Positions 2,939 to 13,715 are shown, counted from the stretch's first letter. The stretch is 64,000 nucleotides of DNA from Oscillatoriales cyanobacterium (GCA_004292515.1 RDXB01000039.1:1778-65777), one strand, 5' to 3'. Numbers and translations are program-made. The notes: generated by a model from the letters alone, not told the origin.

Positions 2939-4126
2939 ATGGAACCGATGCCCGATCCAAGACCGCTACGAGTGCTACAAATCGTGCCATCCGTGTCGGT
3001 GGTGTATGGCGGGCCAAGCCAAATGGTGGTGGGACTGAGCCAAGCGTTGGCTGGGGCTGGGGCCCGGGTCACGCTGCTGACTACCGATAGCAATGGTGAT
3101 GCGGGCCAAGTGCCCCTGGATGTGCCGATCGGGCAGCCGGTGCTGCAAGACGGCTATGAAATTCGCTATTTTCGTTGCGCCCCTTGGCGACGCTATAAGT
3201 TTTCGATTGCCCTGCTGTGGTGGCTGTGGCAACGGGCGGCTGAGTTTGATGTGGCCCACATTCACGCCCTGTTTTCGCCTATTAGTACGGCGGCGGCTAT
3301 GGTCTGCCGTGCGCGGGGTTTGCCCTACGTGCTGCGGCCCTTGGGTACGCTTGATCCTCTGGATTTGCAAAAAAAGCGACGGCTGAAGCAGTGGTATGGC
3401 CGGCTGCTGGAGCGGCAAAACCTGTCGGGGGCGGCGGCGGTGCATTTCACCAGTGCCGAGGAAGCCAAAATTTCCGAGCGATTTGGCGCTGTCACAACCG
3501 ATTGGGTGATGCCGTTGGGAGTGCCGTTGCCGTTGGATCTAGTGCGATCGCCCCGGGATGCTCAGGCCGTGCCGACGATTCTGTTTATGTCGCGGCTCGA
3601 TCGCAAAAAGGGCTTGGACATTGCGATCCCGGCCTTGGAAACCCTGGCGGTGGCGGGGCTGAACTTTCGGTTCATTGTGGCGGGCAGCAATGTGCAAGAT
3701 CCTGACTACGAGCGATCGATTGCGGACTACCTGAGTCGATCGCACCTGAGCGATCGCTCGGAAATGCTGGGGTTTGTCACGGGCGATCGCAAGCGGCAAC
3801 TGCTGGCGATGGCGGATCTGTTTATCTTGCCGTCCTATTACGAAAACTTCGGGATCGCGGTGGCAGAGGCTATGGCGGCGGCAGTGCCCGTGGTGATTTC
3901 CGATCGCGTCCACATTTGGCCAGACGTGGCCGAAGCCGAGGCGGGCTGGATCTGTACCTGTGATGTGTCGTCCTTTGCGGATGTGGTGCGATCAGCCTTG
4001 GCTGATCCGATCGAGCGGCAGCGTCGGGGTCAGAATGCCCGAGCCTGTGCCGCCGGGCGCTATAGCTGGCCGGCGATCGCGCAACAACTCCTAACGGCTT
4101 ACGGCGAAATTCCCCGAACCCGGTAG
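2939..4126 (+). CDS. hpsP: GT4 glycosyltransferase, hormogonium polysaccharide HpsP-like
   Basis: RVLQIVPSVSVVYGGPSQMV, TTDSNGD, and the ENFGIAVAEAMAA (ExFG..E) GT4 signature. Confidence 0.75.
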   Translation: MEPMPDPRPLRVLQIVPSVSVVYGGPSQMVVGLSQALAGAGARVTLLTTDSNGDAGQVPLDVPIGQPVLQDGYEIRYFRCAPWRRYKFSIALLWWLWQRAAEFDVAHIHALFSPISTAAAMVCRARGLPYVLRPLGTLDPLDLQKKRRLKQWYGRLLERQNLSGAAAVHFTSAEEAKISERFGAVTTDWVMPLGVPLPLDLVRSPRDAQAVPTILFMSRLDRKKGLDIAIPALETLAVAGLNFRFIVAGSNVQDPDYERSIADYLSRSHLSDRSEMLGFVTGDRKRQLLAMADLFILPSYYENFGIAVAEAMAAAVPVVISDRVHIWPDVAEAEAGWICTCDVSSFADVVRSALADPIERQRRGQNARACAAGRYSWPAIAQQLLTAYGEIPRTR

Positions 4127-4168
4127 ACTGAGACGAATCCCGCGATCGGTTAGGGCCCAGTGCGATCC

Positions 4169-4984
4169 ATGAGCCTTCAGAGCAACCCCAATTTCGCCCC
4201 AGATTCTTCCCTGACGGCCCCTGATCAGGGGCTGGCCATTCACAGCGAAACCCTCACCATTCCCCCGATTGACCCGGCCTTGGGCTTGCCGATTCGGGCT
4301 TACTTGGCTCGACCGATCGCCCAGCCCGCACCGGTTGTGGTGGTGTTGCAAGAGGTGTTTGGGGTCAATGCCCACATACGATCGGTCTGCGATCGCCTGG
4401 CCCAAGCGGGTTACTTAGCCATTGCCCCCGCCCTTTACCAGCGCACGGCCCCGAGCTTTGAGGTGGACTACAGCGCCGAGTCCTTGGCCCTGGGTCGCCA
4501 CCACAAAGATCTAACCACCGCCGAAACCTTGCTGGCCGATATTCGAGCAGCGATCGCCTATGCCCGCGCCCTACCCGGGGCGATCGGCTCCGGCGTTGGC
4601 TGCTTGGGGTTTTGCTTTGGGGGCCATGTGGCCTACTTGGCGGCCACCCTGCCGGAAGTGACCGCCACAGCCGCGTTTTACGGCGCAGGCATCACCACCT
4701 TTTGCCCCGGTGGCGGCCCACCCACAGTCAGCCGCACGTCCCAGATTCACGGTAAGCTCTGGTTTTTCGTGGGGCTAGCCGATCCCCTGATCCCGATCGC
4801 CCAGATTGAAGCCCTCGAAGCCGCCTTGACCGAATGGGAGAGTGACTATTGCCTATGGCGCTACCCCGATGCAGATCACGGCTTTTTCTGTGATGTGCGC
4901 GCCAGCTATCACCCAGAGGCCGCGACCGATGCTTGGCAGCGGGTGCAAGCATTGTTCGCCACCCTGCGTCCACCTGCCCCCTAG
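4169..4984 (+). CDS. Dienelactone hydrolase family protein
   Basis: QEVFGVNAHIR, GFCFGG nucleophile elbow, YPDADHGF. Confidence 0.85.
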   Translation: MSLQSNPNFAPDSSLTAPDQGLAIHSETLTIPPIDPALGLPIRAYLARPIAQPAPVVVVLQEVFGVNAHIRSVCDRLAQAGYLAIAPALYQRTAPSFEVDYSAESLALGRHHKDLTTAETLLADIRAAIAYARALPGAIGSGVGCLGFCFGGHVAYLAATLPEVTATAAFYGAGITTFCPGGGPPTVSRTSQIHGKLWFFVGLADPLIPIAQIEALEAALTEWESDYCLWRYPDADHGFFCDVRASYHPEAATDAWQRVQALFATLRPPAP

Positions 4985-8032: not shown

Positions 8033-9001
8033 TTACGATCGCCCGGCCAATTCGCGGTTGCTGAACCGTTCTTTCACGAGCTTGATATAGAGATGCTTGA
8101 ACGTCGATCGCACCACGCGGGGCAAGCCAAAATCGATTGGGATCATGAAGCTGGAAAGTTGCCAATCATCGATCGCCAGCTCGGCTGGTTGGGCTAGCGG
8201 ATAGGCGACCTCGGTGCGATCGGGACATACACCCAAAGCCAAGGCGGCGGCGGCGGTGGGCACTCGCTCGGGCTGCACTTGCAGGATATCTAGCAAGGCT
8301 TGATCCAACGCAAACACGTTGGCCGACGCACCCAATAGGCCCAACAAGCGGGGTTCGCCATTGCTGGGGCCGTTACCTTCGTGGCCGATGATCCCGTCGA
8401 TGATCGTGAGGTTAGGGGCGATTGTCTGGGCTGTTTCCACGAGCATCCGACCAAACCGCGCCGCGTCTTTGCCCGCATCCAAGTGCCACCAGGCTTTCAG
8501 TTTGCCGGGAACGCAGCCGAAGAGGTTCTTGACCCCGAGGGTAATGGTGAGCTGGCAGTGGGATTTCACCTTGGGTAGGTTGATCACCACATCTGCGTCC
8601 ATGGCTTCCTTGCTCAGGCGCAGGTGACCAAATTCGCCGCCGAGGCTGTCGTAGCGTTGGCCACGAAACTCGACGATCGGGATCTCCAGTTCTTGGGCGA
8701 TCGCGGCTAGTCCGTTGGCCTTGGCGACTCCGGCGGCACTGCCAAAGGCGGGGCTATCTCCCAAAAACGGCTGACCACCCGCTGCCAACACCAGCTCGGC
8801 CACCACGCGCACCAGTTCCGGGCGGGTGGTGCATTCCTTGGTGGGGCGCGCCCCGGTCAACAAATTGGGCTTCAGCAATACGCGATCGCCCGGTTTCACA
8901 AAGGCTTCGATGCCCCCCAACGGCTCCAGCAAGGCCACAACCTTTTCGCGTAGCAAGTCCAAATCGTAGCTGGTGGCCCTGAGCAAACTAACTGGAACCA
9001 T
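8033..9001 (-). CDS. DUF362 domain (putative Fe-S) protein
   Basis: GDRVLLKPNLL, GDSPAFG, INLPKVKSH, GVKNLFGCVPG. Confidence 0.8.
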   Translation of the reverse strand: MVPVSLLRATSYDLDLLREKVVALLEPLGGIEAFVKPGDRVLLKPNLLTGARPTKECTTRPELVRVVAELVLAAGGQPFLGDSPAFGSAAGVAKANGLAAIAQELEIPIVEFRGQRYDSLGGEFGHLRLSKEAMDADVVINLPKVKSHCQLTITLGVKNLFGCVPGKLKAWWHLDAGKDAARFGRMLVETAQTIAPNLTIIDGIIGHEGNGPSNGEPRLLGLLGASANVFALDQALLDILQVQPERVPTAAAALALGVCPDRTEVAYPLAQPAELAIDDWQLSSFMIPIDFGLPRVVRSTFKHLYIKLVKERFSNRELAGRS

Positions 9002-9063: not shown

Positions 9064-10089
9064 TTAAAAGACGACGGGGCGATCGCGCGGATCGGGGGCG
9101 ATCGGGCTGGATTGGGTCTGCGGGAGATTCAGTAATTGTGACCAGGCAGTGATGATGTCTTGGGCTTGGTTTTCGGGGGAATAGGTCGATCGAATGTAGT
9201 GGGAAGCAGCTTTCACTTGGGCGATCGTTTGGTTGGGGCGCATTGTCCAGTCTTCGATCGCCTGCTCGACGGCTTCCACAAATCCAATGATGTTGCCACG
9301 TTCGATCGGGTAGGAAAACTCAGGTTTGAAAAATTCTCGCCCGCCGCGGCCGTGATAGCCCACCGTTAAACAACCGGCGGCCATAGCTTCAGCGGCGGGC
9401 AATCCGAAGCCTTCAGGATCGCCAAAGCTCATAAAAATTGCCGACTCTCGCATGATTTTGGCGAGTTCGGCTTGGGGTAGATCTAAAACTCGAACGAATT
9501 GAAATCCTTGCAAGCGATTTCGATACCTCAAGATTTGACAAACTTGCTGTAAATCGCTGAGATTCTTACGAGCCAAAAAGCAAATTTGATTGGTTTTCTT
9601 TTGGGGAAAATAAAATAGATCAGGGTTGACGATGCATCGAACTCGGTGAACATTGAGTTCAGGGAAAATGGCTTTTATATAGTTCTGACTGTCTTCAGAA
9701 ACAACCATCACCCCTAGTAAATTGGGGTCGCGATAGGGAAAATACTCTTCATCAAAATTGACTGAAAACTTATCGAAGGTGTAATAGACGTTCTGGTTAA
9801 AGATGACAAACGGTATATTCTTGGGAATACGAGCATATTCGTCTTGCTCATAGATTTCTGGCGTAACAATAATTGTCGAATCATTCACATCAATTTCACC
9901 GGCTTCAACCTGGGTTTGATTTTCAAACCACTGGCAGCGAAATCCTAGGGTTTTGTGCAGAACAGCGGCTGAAAATCCATGTTCATTCAGCACATCCACA
10001 TGGCGATAGATCATTTGGACACCACCTGTAGGCTTGGTGAATTGCCGACAGGGAAACCAGATTTGGTAGTGCGATCGATCTCGGTTCAT
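9064..10089 (-). CDS. GT4 glycosyltransferase resembling the alpha-1,6-glucosyltransferase partner of NGT
   Basis: PTGG...HVDVL, NQNVYYT, FLARK, EGFGLPAAEAMAAGC; AT-richer than the flanking genes. Confidence 0.75.
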   Translation of the reverse strand: MNRDRSHYQIWFPCRQFTKPTGGVQMIYRHVDVLNEHGFSAAVLHKTLGFRCQWFENQTQVEAGEIDVNDSTIIVTPEIYEQDEYARIPKNIPFVIFNQNVYYTFDKFSVNFDEEYFPYRDPNLLGVMVVSEDSQNYIKAIFPELNVHRVRCIVNPDLFYFPQKKTNQICFLARKNLSDLQQVCQILRYRNRLQGFQFVRVLDLPQAELAKIMRESAIFMSFGDPEGFGLPAAEAMAAGCLTVGYHGRGGREFFKPEFSYPIERGNIIGFVEAVEQAIEDWTMRPNQTIAQVKAASHYIRSTYSPENQAQDIITAWSQLLNLPQTQSSPIAPDPRDRPVVF

Positions 10090-10136
10090 TGTCAGATTGT
10101 TTAGCAGGCTATCGTATGGAGAAATTTAAGATCATC

Positions 10137-10165
10137 GTAGGGCTAGGTGTGAAACCTACCCCTGC
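10137..10165 (+). repeat. GTAG-footed REP-like hairpin between the GT41 and GT4 genes
   Basis: GTAGGGCTAGGTGTGAAACCTACCCCTGC. Confidence 0.5.
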
Positions 10166-10179
10166 CAAACTGGTGGGAA

Positions 10180-12036
10180 TCATCCGTAAATCAAGGGTTC
10201 GGGCGGTAGATTTTTGACCCAACGATCGAGTGATCGCGCAAACAAACCCCCCGCCTGCTGGGCGTAGGCAAAACTATTTAAACATAGGGGCGGCCGTTGG
10301 AGTGCAACGGCTAATTGAGCGCGGATCGTGCTGCGAAGCTGTGGATCGGTGGCCAGTTGAACGGCTCGATCGAGGTAGTCGGCTTCCGAGCGAACAATCC
10401 AGCGATCGAGACCCACATCTCGCAAAATGGCAGCTCCTTGGCGCGATCGAAACCAATCACTTTCACGAGCAACGACAGGCAAACCCACCTCGATCGCATC
10501 AACAATTGAGTTAGCACCCGTGAAGGGAAATGAGTCGAGATAAATATCGCTAAGTTTAAGCACTTCCTGCACATCGGCACGACTGGGTAAGGCATCAAAC
10601 ACAATCAATCGGTTGGGATCAACACCGCGATCGCTCAAAGTTGCTCGAAACCGCTGCCAGAATTGTACCTTTGGGTAATTACGCCGCCAACTAGCTCCAA
10701 AGGGACAAAGCAACAACACAGAATTCGACACTCGCTGCAATAATGTGGCCCAGGTTTCTCGCAGTTCGGGAATCGTTTTGTAAAGGTTTGCACCGGAAGT
10801 AAAGGCGACTGTTCCTGGACTTATTCCTAAGTCGGCGCGCGAAATATTTAACCGAGCGGTGGCATTTTCCAAGGAATAGTCAAAACAGTGGGCCGGGCCG
10901 CGAACTAGCATCAGTTGCTCGGTGTATTGGGCGGCCCCGTTGGAGATTTCAGTGAAGGTTCCCGAGAGATAGTAATCCACATGGGTCATACCGCTGGTGA
11001 CTGGAGAAGATACGGAATGAATCTGCACCCGCGCCAACCGATGTGCGCCAATGCTTAAGACCCGATGCAATGAATTTGTGACGATCGTGCCGAGCAGAAT
11101 GACATCGAGATCATCAGCACGAATTTGCTGTACTTGTTCGGCAACGCTACCCGTCAACTGGACAATTCGATCGCCCGATCGTCGCTGCTGATAGTGATCA
11201 AGTAAATCATCACCGAGATTGATCACATAGAGTGTAATTTCAAAGCGATCGCGATCGAGCCATTCAAAGACTGGAAAAGTGGTGAAGGTTTCCGGGTGCG
11301 ATAGATAATTGGTTTTGAGGATGCCGAGGCGAATTTTTGAGCGGTGAACTGGGCGATCTGCAAACTGATAATTAAGCTGATGATCGGCTAAGGTTAGGGC
11401 AAATTCGATGATTTGTGATCGCTGGGCAAAGGTTATGCAAACATTGCGATCGCAAAAATATAGCGGCACTAAATTAACGTTATGACTAAAAACTAAAGCA
11501 GCATTTTGCCACTTTGGAGATTGGGGAGATTGCAGGATTTGGGTATGCAGCTCATCCACTAAAGCAATCATAAAATCGGCATAGCGATCGACTTCGCCAA
11601 CTTCCCGAAAAAAGCAGGGAAACGCCAAGCAATATCGTAAAAAGGGTGCGATCACCCAATCGGGTAAACTCAAGTCTTGGAAGCTTTTAACCCAAGTTTC
11701 CGCACGTTGATACAACATCAGAGCCAAGCATAACGCCAACCGATCGCCCTGGTCAGCCGCTGTCATGGCATCTTGAATGGCGATGACTTGACGCTGTTCA
11801 TCGATCGTTAATGCTTCATAGCCCAAGTTGCTATCGAGTAAGAGTTCTTGGGCGGAGCCAAATCGTTGCCATTGGGTGGCCAGTTGGGTCGCAGGAGTCG
11901 ATCGCCATTGCTCGGCCAACTGCGATCGCAGCGATCGTAGCCGCCCTAAGAGGGTTGGAGAAAAAGGTTGTTGATCCCAAGCAATTAAGGCTCGTTCAAT
12001 CTCTGAGTAAATCGGCTCCACGATCAACATACACAT
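10180..12036 (-). CDS. GT41 glycosyltransferase (OGT/SPINDLY/HMW1C-NGT family) without TPR repeats
   Basis: All-helical N-terminus, then IRADDLDVIL, RLARVQIH..PVTSG..VDY, GANLYK (catalytic Lys), DIYLDSFPFTGANS..DAIEVGLPVV, SRQGAAIL. Confidence 0.8.
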   Translation of the reverse strand: MCMLIVEPIYSEIERALIAWDQQPFSPTLLGRLRSLRSQLAEQWRSTPATQLATQWQRFGSAQELLLDSNLGYEALTIDEQRQVIAIQDAMTAADQGDRLALCLALMLYQRAETWVKSFQDLSLPDWVIAPFLRYCLAFPCFFREVGEVDRYADFMIALVDELHTQILQSPQSPKWQNAALVFSHNVNLVPLYFCDRNVCITFAQRSQIIEFALTLADHQLNYQFADRPVHRSKIRLGILKTNYLSHPETFTTFPVFEWLDRDRFEITLYVINLGDDLLDHYQQRRSGDRIVQLTGSVAEQVQQIRADDLDVILLGTIVTNSLHRVLSIGAHRLARVQIHSVSSPVTSGMTHVDYYLSGTFTEISNGAAQYTEQLMLVRGPAHCFDYSLENATARLNISRADLGISPGTVAFTSGANLYKTIPELRETWATLLQRVSNSVLLLCPFGASWRRNYPKVQFWQRFRATLSDRGVDPNRLIVFDALPSRADVQEVLKLSDIYLDSFPFTGANSIVDAIEVGLPVVARESDWFRSRQGAAILRDVGLDRWIVRSEADYLDRAVQLATDPQLRSTIRAQLAVALQRPPLCLNSFAYAQQAGGLFARSLDRWVKNLPPEPLIYG

Positions 12037-12121
12037 AAAAGATAAGCAAAATTAGCATAAAAATGGGCCAGCGATCGCCAGCCCACTGCTGCATAACATG
12101 ATACTCAGCCAAGAACCCAGC

Positions 12122-13483
12122 TTAAGACTGACCCGGCAACAAAAACCGCACCATCATGTACAAAGAGGCCACCACCAATTGTGCCAACATGACTGGAATT
12201 CCGTATTTCAGAAAGCGGTGAAAAGAAATACTTTTACCATGTATCTCCGCAATTCCAGCCGCCACAATATTGGAAGATGCCCCCACTAATGTGCCATTTC
12301 CTCCCAAGGTTGCGCCATACATCATGGCATAGAACAACGGCATAACTTGTGGTGGAAAACTACCAGCATAATCCTGAGCCAAAATTTCTGGCCCAGCCAG
12401 CCCCACATTCACCACATATTCCTTCAGCAGAGGCACCATCGCCACCACCAAAGGAATATTAGGAACCACACTAGAAATCAAACCAACAAAGAAAATTAAA
12501 ACGATCGCACCCAAAAAGATATTGGTGCCTAAGACAACCCCCAAAACACCCGATAGCGCACTGACAACACCCGTTTTTTGGAGTCCACCAATCAGCACAA
12601 AGATGGACATAAAGAACAGCAAGGTGCTCCAGTCCACATCCCGCAAAATATTGTTGACGGTATCAATTTTGCTGTGATGGGCGAGGAGCAAAGCCAAGGC
12701 AGCACCGAGCAAAGCAACCGCAGCCGGAGAAACTGGTGATGGCAATGCTTCACCAATTACAAAAAACAACAACACAAGCGCAACAATTAGCCCCCCAAAG
12801 ACCAAGGTTCGCGGATGGTTGATTTTGGGATGGGGCAAATCGTCTAGGCTCTTAAGCTCCTTGCGCCATGTATCCCGAAACAGAATGGGCAAGAGCAGCA
12901 GAATCACCCCGATCGCTAAAGCCCCCCCTAGACTCAGCCGACTCAGGTATTCATTGAAGGTTAAGTTGACCGCATCCCCCACAATGTAGGTGGCAGGATC
13001 CCCCACAATGGTCAGCAGTCCTGCACTGTTGGCAACAAACACCATCAAAATCAAAAGCGGCACAAAATCCACGCCCACTTCTTCCGCCAAGGGGGGAATG
13101 AGCGGTGCTAACAGCATGACGGTCGTGGCATTAGGCAAAACTGCACAAATGGGAGTTGTAATACCGACAATTCCCAACAACAAGTTCTTGCCTTTTCCTT
13201 TAGCAAGAATTACCATCTGCGTTGCCAAATATTCAAAGACTTTGGTGGGTTCAAATGCCCGCACCAAAATCATCACACCCAAAAATAATGCCAATGTTCC
13301 ATGACTTTGGCTGATGTAGCCAATCGCTTCCTTCATGGTCATCACATGGGCAAACACCAACACTAATGCACCCAAAAATGCTGCGACCGTGAGGTGAATC
13401 CACTCGGTCATAATGACGAGAATCACGATCGAGAAGACGATCGCCGCAATCCAAGCCTGCATGTTGCCAATTTGTTCTAGCAT
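12122..13483 (-). CDS. ArsB/NhaD/SLC13 (P-protein-like) ion transporter
   Basis: Many TM helices; ANSAGLLTIVGDPAT, DWSTLLFF, GATLGGNGTLVGASSN. ATG at 13483 follows GGAG. Confidence 0.8.
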   Translation of the reverse strand: MLEQIGNMQAWIAAIVFSIVILVIMTEWIHLTVAAFLGALVLVFAHVMTMKEAIGYISQSHGTLALFLGVMILVRAFEPTKVFEYLATQMVILAKGKGKNLLLGIVGITTPICAVLPNATTVMLLAPLIPPLAEEVGVDFVPLLILMVFVANSAGLLTIVGDPATYIVGDAVNLTFNEYLSRLSLGGALAIGVILLLLPILFRDTWRKELKSLDDLPHPKINHPRTLVFGGLIVALVLLFFVIGEALPSPVSPAAVALLGAALALLLAHHSKIDTVNNILRDVDWSTLLFFMSIFVLIGGLQKTGVVSALSGVLGVVLGTNIFLGAIVLIFFVGLISSVVPNIPLVVAMVPLLKEYVVNVGLAGPEILAQDYAGSFPPQVMPLFYAMMYGATLGGNGTLVGASSNIVAAGIAEIHGKSISFHRFLKYGIPVMLAQLVVASLYMMVRFLLPGQS

Positions 13484-13715
13484 CCTGTAATCTCCCTTCC
13501 ATTGGCTGACGAGGTTAGCTGACGGGCTAGGCTTGGAAGTCGCCTTCTTGAGTGACAAGATTCGCCCCGAATAATGCTGGTTCCCCCGCTCGATCGCCTT
13601 GCATCATCAAACTCAGAAACTATATCGCAGCCTCTCAAGCAAGATGAGTATCTGGCTTGACTTGGGAGCTGAATTCTGAAGCCTCGATCAGCACGATCAA
13701 TTAAGCCGTCTACAT

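Follow-up and report, generated by a model that had tools for sequence, protein, structure and literature searches.

Do two neighbouring glycosyltransferase genes of a cyanobacterium encode successive steps of one glycosylation pathway and, if so, of which kind? The question is raised by a stretch of 64,000 nucleotides from an Oscillatoriales cyanobacterium (GCA_004292515.1 RDXB01000039.1:1778-65777; hereafter the window, its genome being G000). In it, an earlier note had described from the sequence alone a GT41 glycosyltransferase of 618 amino acids (aa) without tetratricopeptide repeats (TPRs), followed 90 bp later by a GT4 glycosyltransferase of 341 aa. This description was accurate, with exact coordinates and matching Pfam families, and we refer to the two proteins as P0001 and P0002 (Table 1). 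The note took the pair for a cyanobacterial counterpart of the ngt-agt operon, in which P0001, of NGT/HMW1C type, would place glucose on the Asn of N-X-S/T and P0002, of Agt type, would extend it by alpha-1,6 linkages. Our analysis leads elsewhere. P0001 groups with the OGT/SPINDLY enzymes, and we tentatively read the two genes, with a probability of about 0.42, as a coupled two-step cytoplasmic glycosylation within one glycan-building pathway, probably O-linked.

P0001 was placed within GT41 by bit score, extent of the alignment and rank in Foldseek. The protein matched the Pfam family Glyco_transf_41 (PF13844) over residues 398-584 with 87.6 bits (cut-off 25; E 7.4e-25). As a single sequence against the PDB it gave 80.9 bits with SPY, 70.5 with XcOGT and about 63-66 with OGT, versus 34.2 bits for 8p0q (NGT-like) and 24.9 bits for ApNGT (3q3e) among the NGT-type chains. 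A profile built from 27 family members scored 174 bits with SPY, 155 with TtOGT, 146-156 with OGT and 128 with XcOGT, each over some 380-390 positions, versus 45-56 bits for NGT structures, across only about 86 positions in the C-terminal lobe. With the NCBIfam model NGTferase (NF049992, cut-off 1000) P0001 obtained 35.4 bits; in a search of the whole genome with this model no gene of G000 exceeded the cut-off, and P0001 (31.7 bits) came below another GT41 of the same genome. The AlphaFold2 model of P0001 (predicted local distance difference test, pLDDT, 91.4; predicted template-modelling score, pTM, 0.92) was then compared by Foldseek, and all 50 matches listed were SPY, OGT, XcOGT or TtOGT (E 3e-25 to 1e-22, identity at most 21%), with no NGT among them. 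Lys420 of P0001, invariant in the alignment of 27 family sequences, aligns with the conserved, catalytic nucleotide-sugar-binding lysine of SPY and Drosophila OGT (K665 of SPY and K842 of OGT). The same conserved residue is K445 in the Ogt of Synechococcus elongatus (PMC9306852). Neither P0001 nor P0002 has a transmembrane segment, and no hydrophobic segment was found in P0001 (maximum Kyte-Doolittle value over 19 residues, 1.38). Taken together, profile scores and predicted structure group P0001 with SPY and OGT, and we assign it to the OGT/SPINDLY type of GT41 rather than to the NGT/HMW1C type that had been proposed. Other GT41 genes of the genome, on contigs C90 and C16, are better candidates than P0001 for an orthologue of Ogt.

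The most distinctive part of P0001 is its N terminus. The SPY and OGT enzymes have a TPR array, whereas P0001 carries instead a helical domain of 233 aa (the N-domain) without relatives in Pfam or the PDB. The whole protein did not match any TPR family at E<=0.1, and residues 1-233 alone had no Pfam match even at E<=10, TPR families included; no PDB sequence matched the domain, and the matches of the GT41 profile begin only at position 232-238. Modelled alone from a shallow alignment (pLDDT 82), the N-domain had a best Foldseek match of E 0.11 and template-modelling scores of at most 0.32, the matches being designed helical repeats, 14-3-3 and ARM proteins; for this shallow-alignment model there was neither an NGT chain nor a TPR protein among the 50 matches listed. 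In NGT, the all-alpha domain carries the Arg/Asp dyad that reads the sequon (PMC10507012). The N-domain of P0001 appears, from these searches and its model, to be neither a recognisable TPR array nor detectably an NGT all-alpha domain.

A profile search with the N-domain retrieved 511 clusters at 50% identity from 1.84 billion representatives. Among the best 150 matches listed, most were proteins of 900-3200 aa with the domain in an internal position, and a minority were stand-alone proteins of about 600 aa, as P0001. In an even sample of 251 cyanobacterial genomes, 33 had the family, and these represented 22 of 124 genera. The GT41 enzymes with a helical N-domain in place of TPRs make up a sizeable branch of the family that has no name and is distinguished by a new accessory domain. 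A metagenomic cyanobacterial contig contained two tandem TPR-less GT41 genes of this family (L123:5540-9318 and L124:1773-5551; about 605 aa), adjoining an amine-oxidase-like gene. A five-helix unit makes up the first half of the N-domain, and other glycosyltransferases contain this unit alone, in tandem copies. Proteins with this unit include GT41, GT4 and CmcI-type methyltransferase proteins, as well as giant fusions with GT2 and FkbM domains in addition.

A way to approach the role of the GT41 module is to examine the proteins in which it is embedded. Unlike SPY and OGT, the module of P0001 most often shares its protein with GT2, GT4, methyl-, sulfo- or fucosyltransferase domains. Specifically, N-domain and GT41 were found together with a sulfotransferase, with GT11 and NodZ fucosyltransferases and with FkbM and type-11 methyltransferases; other partners were two GT2 domains, a CmcI rhamnosyl-O-methyltransferase, GT4 with TylF, GT4 alone and a second GT41. 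The best-scoring giants combine GT4 and/or GT2 with methyltransferases, FkbM included, and have GT4 directly ahead of the N-domain. G000 itself encodes a soluble paralogue of 1841 aa (C109:934-6459, locus L119) in which four GT2 domains are followed by N-domain and GT41 (37% identity to P0001), and this protein is kept in G001, G002 and G003 (1860-1907 aa), among unrelated housekeeping genes. Fusion to glycan enzymes implies that the product or the substrate of the GT41 module is normally handled by further glycosyltransferases, and we conclude that the module is a regular part of a multi-step, soluble glycan assembly. Near the family members examined there was no flippase, ATP-binding cassette (ABC) exporter, Wzy/polymerase or Wza gene; the neighbours, of stand-alone and giant members alike, were unrelated housekeeping genes, surroundings that suit a classical polysaccharide locus less well than a role directed at protein or otherwise confined to the cytoplasm.

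P0002 belongs to GT4, a family of retaining enzymes, and matched Glycos_transf_1 (PF00534) with 35.3 bits (cut-off 26.4). Its only significant PDB match was AmGGT (8xsg; phmmer E 2.1e-13), residues 11-324 aligning with residues 8-324, and hhalign of the P0002 family profile against AmGGT gave a probability of 99.2% (E 1e-19), with 22% identity over 293 columns. AmGGT, an alpha-1,6-glucosyltransferase that acts processively, shares 51% identity with ApAgt, which in Actinobacillus pleuropneumoniae is encoded with its partner ApNGT in the rimO-ngt-agt operon (PMC12159676). Both AmGGT (8xsg/8xsh) and ApAgt are similar in size to P0002, which likewise has no membrane segment and is homologous to them over the full length. 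The donor site of AmGGT comprises N100, R170, K171, Y201, R203, E223 and E231 (PMC12159676). Five of these seven residues are kept in P0002, as N100, R174, K175, E226 and E234, whereas the alignment shows Gln in place of R203 and Leu in place of Y201. The kept residues include NQN, RK and both Glu of E..GL...EAMA. The motifs that the earlier note had listed for this enzyme (PTGG, NQN.YYT, RK and E..GL...EAMA.GC) have counterparts in AmGGT, so that the likeness it saw is genuine, if distant. The acceptor type of AmGGT can be read at positions 15-16 and 78-79, where TY/GV denotes oligosaccharide and CT/VM glycopeptide (PMC12159676). P0002 has PTGG instead of PTYGG, a one-residue deletion in which the pair 15-16 falls, so that its acceptor type cannot be read in this way; the pair 78-79 lies in a poorly aligned stretch. 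The identity of 22% is below the threshold of about 40% for transfer of function (PMC12159676). P0002 is a homologue, full-length but remote, of the Agt/AmGGT alpha-1,6-glucosyltransferases.

The public gene call for the GT4 begins at Met26 and yields a protein of 316 aa. We prefer the start of the 341-aa protein because four related contigs keep both the ATG at 10089 and the codons downstream of it and because the alignment to AmGGT begins at residue 11, before Met26. The P0002 family comprised 792 matches spread across many phyla, and relatives at 40-47% identity sit in clusters of polysaccharide type, with Wzy_C, ABC-2, Wza, GT2, PMT_2 and sulfotransferase genes. This is the company of lipopolysaccharide or exopolysaccharide enzymes that, by the earlier note's own account, speaks against its model. 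In cyanobacteria the Agt-like subfamily is restricted to 7 of the 251 genomes, nearly all of one family.

A second association ties this GT4 to the helical unit. In G004 and G006, from another genus of the same family, the gene that immediately precedes the P0002 homologue, in the same orientation, encodes a protein of 1085-1112 aa with a GT4 domain and three five-helix units, and it is found at the end of a glycosyltransferase operon of four genes. The Agt-like GT4 has been placed twice, independently, next to a helical-unit glycosyltransferase, with different partners. The second adjacency argues for a functional link, and the double placement is unlikely by chance (about 0.2% per lineage, a rough estimate and not a formal test, which assumes some 4 helical-unit genes per genome of some 3700 genes, both figures being estimated). 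No five-helix unit was seen beside Agt-like GT4 genes of other phyla in 80 loci. The orthologue of the 1085-1112-aa protein in G000 (C67:27559-30543, 54% identity) belongs to a cluster of six minus-strand genes for soluble multi-domain glycan enzymes (Table 1), with no exporter among the annotated genes.

Along these lines, the transcriptional layout of the locus is compatible with joint expression. The terminator-like hairpin ahead of the GT41 likely marks the upstream boundary of the transcription unit, and a terminator scan found no such site between the GT41, GT4 and DUF362 genes. The small hairpin in the spacer is kept in four relatives through changes on both arms, a weak signal with z-scores of only -1.5 to -2.4. 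We infer that co-transcription of GT41 and GT4, possibly with DUF362, is plausible. The DUF362 gene, a conserved neighbour of GT4, may share its transcript.

These results, in which folds, family placement, solubility, donor-site conservation and genomic associations were obtained directly, suggest the following pathway, for which we infer the order of action, the donor sugars and the protein nature of the acceptor. P0001 would act as an inverting GT41 that transfers the first sugar from a nucleotide sugar by means of the conserved Lys420 and its GT-B pocket. The 233-residue helical domain, standing in for the TPR array, would bind the acceptor or a partner. To our knowledge, every characterised GT41 (OGT, SPY, NGT, the cyanobacterial Ogt) acts on protein or has been tied to it, so that a protein side chain is the most likely acceptor, with Ser/Thr likelier than Asn by analogy. 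P0002 would then extend the sugar added by P0001 with one or more hexoses. A functional link between the two enzymes is supported by the fusion of the module to glycosyltransferases and by the second adjacency of GT4 and helical unit. One could go further and see in the five-helix unit the mark of a group of soluble glycosylation enzymes of cyanobacteria that has so far escaped description. These would dock on a common acceptor or on each other and work as a cytoplasmic line from which protein receives a glycan that is methylated, fucosylated or sulfated, with initiation by the TPR-less GT41 and elongation by the Agt-like GT4. We regard this extension as quite unlikely.

How deep is the adjacency of the two genes? 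GT41 and GT4 are neighbours in G000 and in the metagenomic contigs L028, L032 and L033/L034 (81-92% identity). The gene upstream of GT41 differs: G000 has a CitMHS-type transporter there, L028 and L029 have a rhodanese, and L032 has a holin-like gene. All four metagenomic contigs with the pair break inside GT4 or within 60 bp after it, which hints at a repeat or strain variation just downstream. In the same-genus genomes G001 and G002 (identity 66% for GT41 and 73% for GT4) the two genes lie either on separate contigs or at a distance of 576 kb. The GT41 of G002 adjoins a CHAT-TPR gene and an integrase gene, and more distant members of the GT41 family had no GT4 neighbour. The order GT4-DUF362 is kept in G000, G001, G002, G003 and GCA_008633385.1 (loci L020, L022, L025 and L035), making DUF362 the most conserved neighbour of GT4. 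In G002 and GCA_008633385.1, the two genomes with that neighbour annotated, a radical-SAM gene follows fumC-GT4-DUF362. DUF362 is widespread in cyanobacteria and GT4 rare, so that GT4 looks like an insertion which an ancestor acquired between fumC and DUF362. The GT41-GT4 adjacency is a recent rearrangement, seen only in the G000 lineage and its closest relatives, and the supposed co-occurrence of an ngt-agt operon does not extend beyond this shallow clade. Co-occurrence across cyanobacteria was uninformative as a test of the link, the GT4 subfamily being rare and found almost wholly in one family.

Several observations weigh against a coupled pathway. In G001, G002, G003 and GCA_008633385.1 the pair is split, GT4 lying between fumC and DUF362 with no GT41 nearby; with a gap of 90 bp, adjacency kept in a shallow clade needs no selection; and since the GT41 family occurs in 33 of the 251 genomes versus 7 for the GT4 subfamily, most of its members work without an Agt-like GT4. 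The GT4 domains fused to the GT41 module were tried as members of the Agt-like subfamily and rejected, as they are generic and match only in the C-terminal motif. No candidate substrate stood out in the window among sequon-rich or Ser/Thr-rich open reading frames (ORFs), in agreement with the earlier note. The genes might instead be fortuitous neighbours, the GT41 acting for example on cytoplasmic proteins and the GT4 for example in a polysaccharide, oligosaccharide or glycolipid pathway, brought side by side by rearrangement in one shallow lineage. Besides the split pair, this reading has in its favour that the gene order of the region has changed by comparison with G002 (in G000, fumC and the radical-SAM gene are on other contigs), that the relatives of P0002 at 40-47% identity lie in polysaccharide clusters, and that in other phyla any GT41 was found within 10 kb in only 2 of 80 loci with a GT4 homologue. 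Chance does not readily explain the independent adjacency in G004 and G006, the habitual fusion of the GT41 module to other glycosyltransferases or the preservation of the GT41-GT4 junction across three different upstream flanks, and we consider such an accident somewhat unlikely.

If the enzymes are coupled, their acceptor might not be a protein: the helical-unit GT41s, their giant relatives and the Agt-like GT4 could build a free or lipid-linked glycan, such as a methylated or sulfated oligo- or polysaccharide, with GT41 transferring sugar to sugar. Such a product would suit a module that resides in proteins of 900-3200 aa with several GT2/GT4 domains and CmcI, TylF and FkbM sugar O-methyltransferase domains, the gene cluster on C67, the polysaccharide surroundings of the P0002 relatives and the preference of AmGGT for oligosaccharides over glycopeptides (PMC12159676). 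It agrees less well with the family members examined, which have no flippase, ABC exporter, Wzy or Wza gene near them. TPRs usually mediate protein binding, and their presence on neighbouring enzymes of the C67 cluster also points to protein. As the GT41s known to be characterised all act on protein or are tied to it (PMC9306852; PMC10507012), we hold a non-protein glycan to be unlikely. The N-glycosylation model is very improbable. It has in its favour that ApNGT, HMW1C and AaNGT, with ApAgt, are likewise TPR-less soluble GT41s of about 620 aa followed by a GT4 of about 340 aa, homologous to P0002, in the order found here (rimO-ngt-agt; PMC12159676), and that the closest characterised relative of P0002 is the Agt homologue AmGGT. 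P0001, however, is not of the NGT branch: NGT structures scored 25-56 bits versus 128-174 for OGT/SPY, the NGTferase score is far below its cut-off, no NGT was among the 50 Foldseek matches listed, and the N-domain gave no match to the NGT domain with the sequon-reading dyad (PMC10507012). There is, moreover, no rimO, adhesin or sequon-rich gene nearby, conservation of the pair reaches no further than a shallow clade, and P0002 is just 22% identical to AmGGT. What survives of the two-step protein glycosylation first proposed is the looser pair, made plausible by the fusions and the second GT4 adjacency; its Asn-linked form with NGT and Agt does not.

Table 1. Positions of the GT41-GT4 pair, its parts and its neighbours (numbered from the first letter of the window unless a contig is named).
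Feature	Position	Strand	Description
GT41 gene (P0001)	10180..12036	minus	ORF of 618 aa; predicted soluble OGT/SPINDLY-type glycosyltransferase without TPRs
N-terminal all-helical domain of P0001	11338..12036	minus	residues 1-233, from structure models
Five-helix unit	11656-12018	minus	about residues 7-127, first half of the N-domain
GT-B catalytic region of P0001	10180..11337	minus	residues 234-618; Lys420 codon at 10777-10779
GT41-GT4 spacer	10090..10179	minus	90 bp; small hairpin at 10140-10162; no terminator-like site
GT4 gene (P0002)	9064..10089	minus	ORF of 341 aa; predicted soluble GT4-type GT-B enzyme, remote Agt/AmGGT homologue
DUF362 / Npun_F2552-family gene	8033..9001	minus	NF052623, 556 bits; 62 bp downstream of GT4
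Terminator-like hairpin	12062..12087	minus	11 pairs, HIP1 site inside, then T-run; between transporter gene and GT41 start
CitMHS/ArsB-type transporter gene	12122-13558	minus	upstream of GT41
P0180	6293-7897	plus	ORF of 534 aa; convergent with DUF362 gene
P0181	5082-6197	plus	ORF of 371 aa
Dienelactone hydrolase gene	4160-4984		precedes P0181
GT4 gene, conventional	2939-4126		395 aa; precedes P0181
C67 cluster	C67:26249-39198 (locus L132:5249-18198)	minus	six genes
C67 cluster genes		minus	936 aa, two FkbM methyltransferase domains and TPRs; 923 aa, TPR and GT61; 631 aa, GT25 and Glyco_trans_1_2
C67 cluster genes		minus	232 aa, CmcI-like methyltransferase; 994 aa, GT4, helical unit, methyltransferase, helical unit; 422 aa, CmcI-like methyltransferase and helical unit

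Composition gives some indication of the history of the locus. The window contains 105 copies of the palindrome HIP1 (GCGATCGC), a mean density of 1.6 per kb, where 2.7 copies would be expected, and this excess, together with the cyanobacterial relatives of the genome, identifies the host as a cyanobacterium. Both genes are richer in AT than the core genome, as had been remarked: GT41 has a guanine-plus-cytosine (GC) content of 49.6% (6th percentile) and GT4 of 46.8% (3rd percentile), against a mean of 58.3% (standard deviation 4.7%) for the 1647 ORFs of at least 300 aa in a genome of 56.3% GC. AT-richness would suggest a recent foreign origin of GT41, but the gene has four HIP1 sites, as many for its length as is usual in the genome, and in G002 the GT4, there in a housekeeping context, is just as rich in AT; both observations weaken the suggestion. 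The CitMHS/ArsB-type transporter gene has 48.2% GC and no HIP1 site in 1.4 kb; close relatives have no such gene at the same position, and it may be a recent arrival. On the other side of the pair, P0180 (48.0% GC) is AT-rich like GT41 and GT4 and matched nothing in Pfam, NCBIfam or PDB sequence searches, which gave no support to a GH57-type identity suggested by an HMHQP motif. The N terminus of P0181 (VAITAHGFGHATR) resembles that of a GT-B glycosyltransferase, and the protein had no Pfam or NCBIfam match.

Among characterised systems, the SPY/OGT branch (Arabidopsis SPY, 7y4i and 8dtf; human and Drosophila OGT; XcOGT, 2vsn; TtOGT, 5djs) shares with P0001 the GT-B catalytic region, the uridine diphosphate-binding lysine (K420 in P0001) and solubility. 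Closer in setting are Ogt of S. elongatus (Synpcc7942_0051) and OgtA of Nostoc punctiforme, which like P0001 are cytoplasmic cyanobacterial GT41s. Genetic evidence ties both to pilin glycosylation, of PilA in the case of S. elongatus, so GT41-linked protein glycosylation is already present in the phylum, and the earlier note's remark that it knew of no characterised system of the kind in cyanobacteria needs correction; both carry N-terminal TPRs, which P0001 does not (PMC9306852). No pilin gene was identified in the annotated stretch (about 2.9-19.2 kb of the window).

The failure of the N-glycosylation reading means that the biology of NGT is not extended to cyanobacteria by this locus, which is neither a new kind of system nor the first protein glycosylation system of the group. 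What is left standing is an unnamed branch of GT41 with a helical domain in place of TPRs and habitual fusions to GT2, GT4, O-methyl-, sulfo- and fucosyltransferases. If it is true that its enzymes are promiscuous soluble glycosyltransferases, they could interest glyco-engineers as ApNGT and Agt do. The glycans of cyanobacterial surfaces and pili matter for motility, biofilm formation and interactions with phages and grazers, and among GT41 enzymes only Ogt and OgtA have been tied to them genetically. The stand-alone GT41 of 618 aa and its partner of 341 aa are the smallest and most tractable form of the module for biochemistry.

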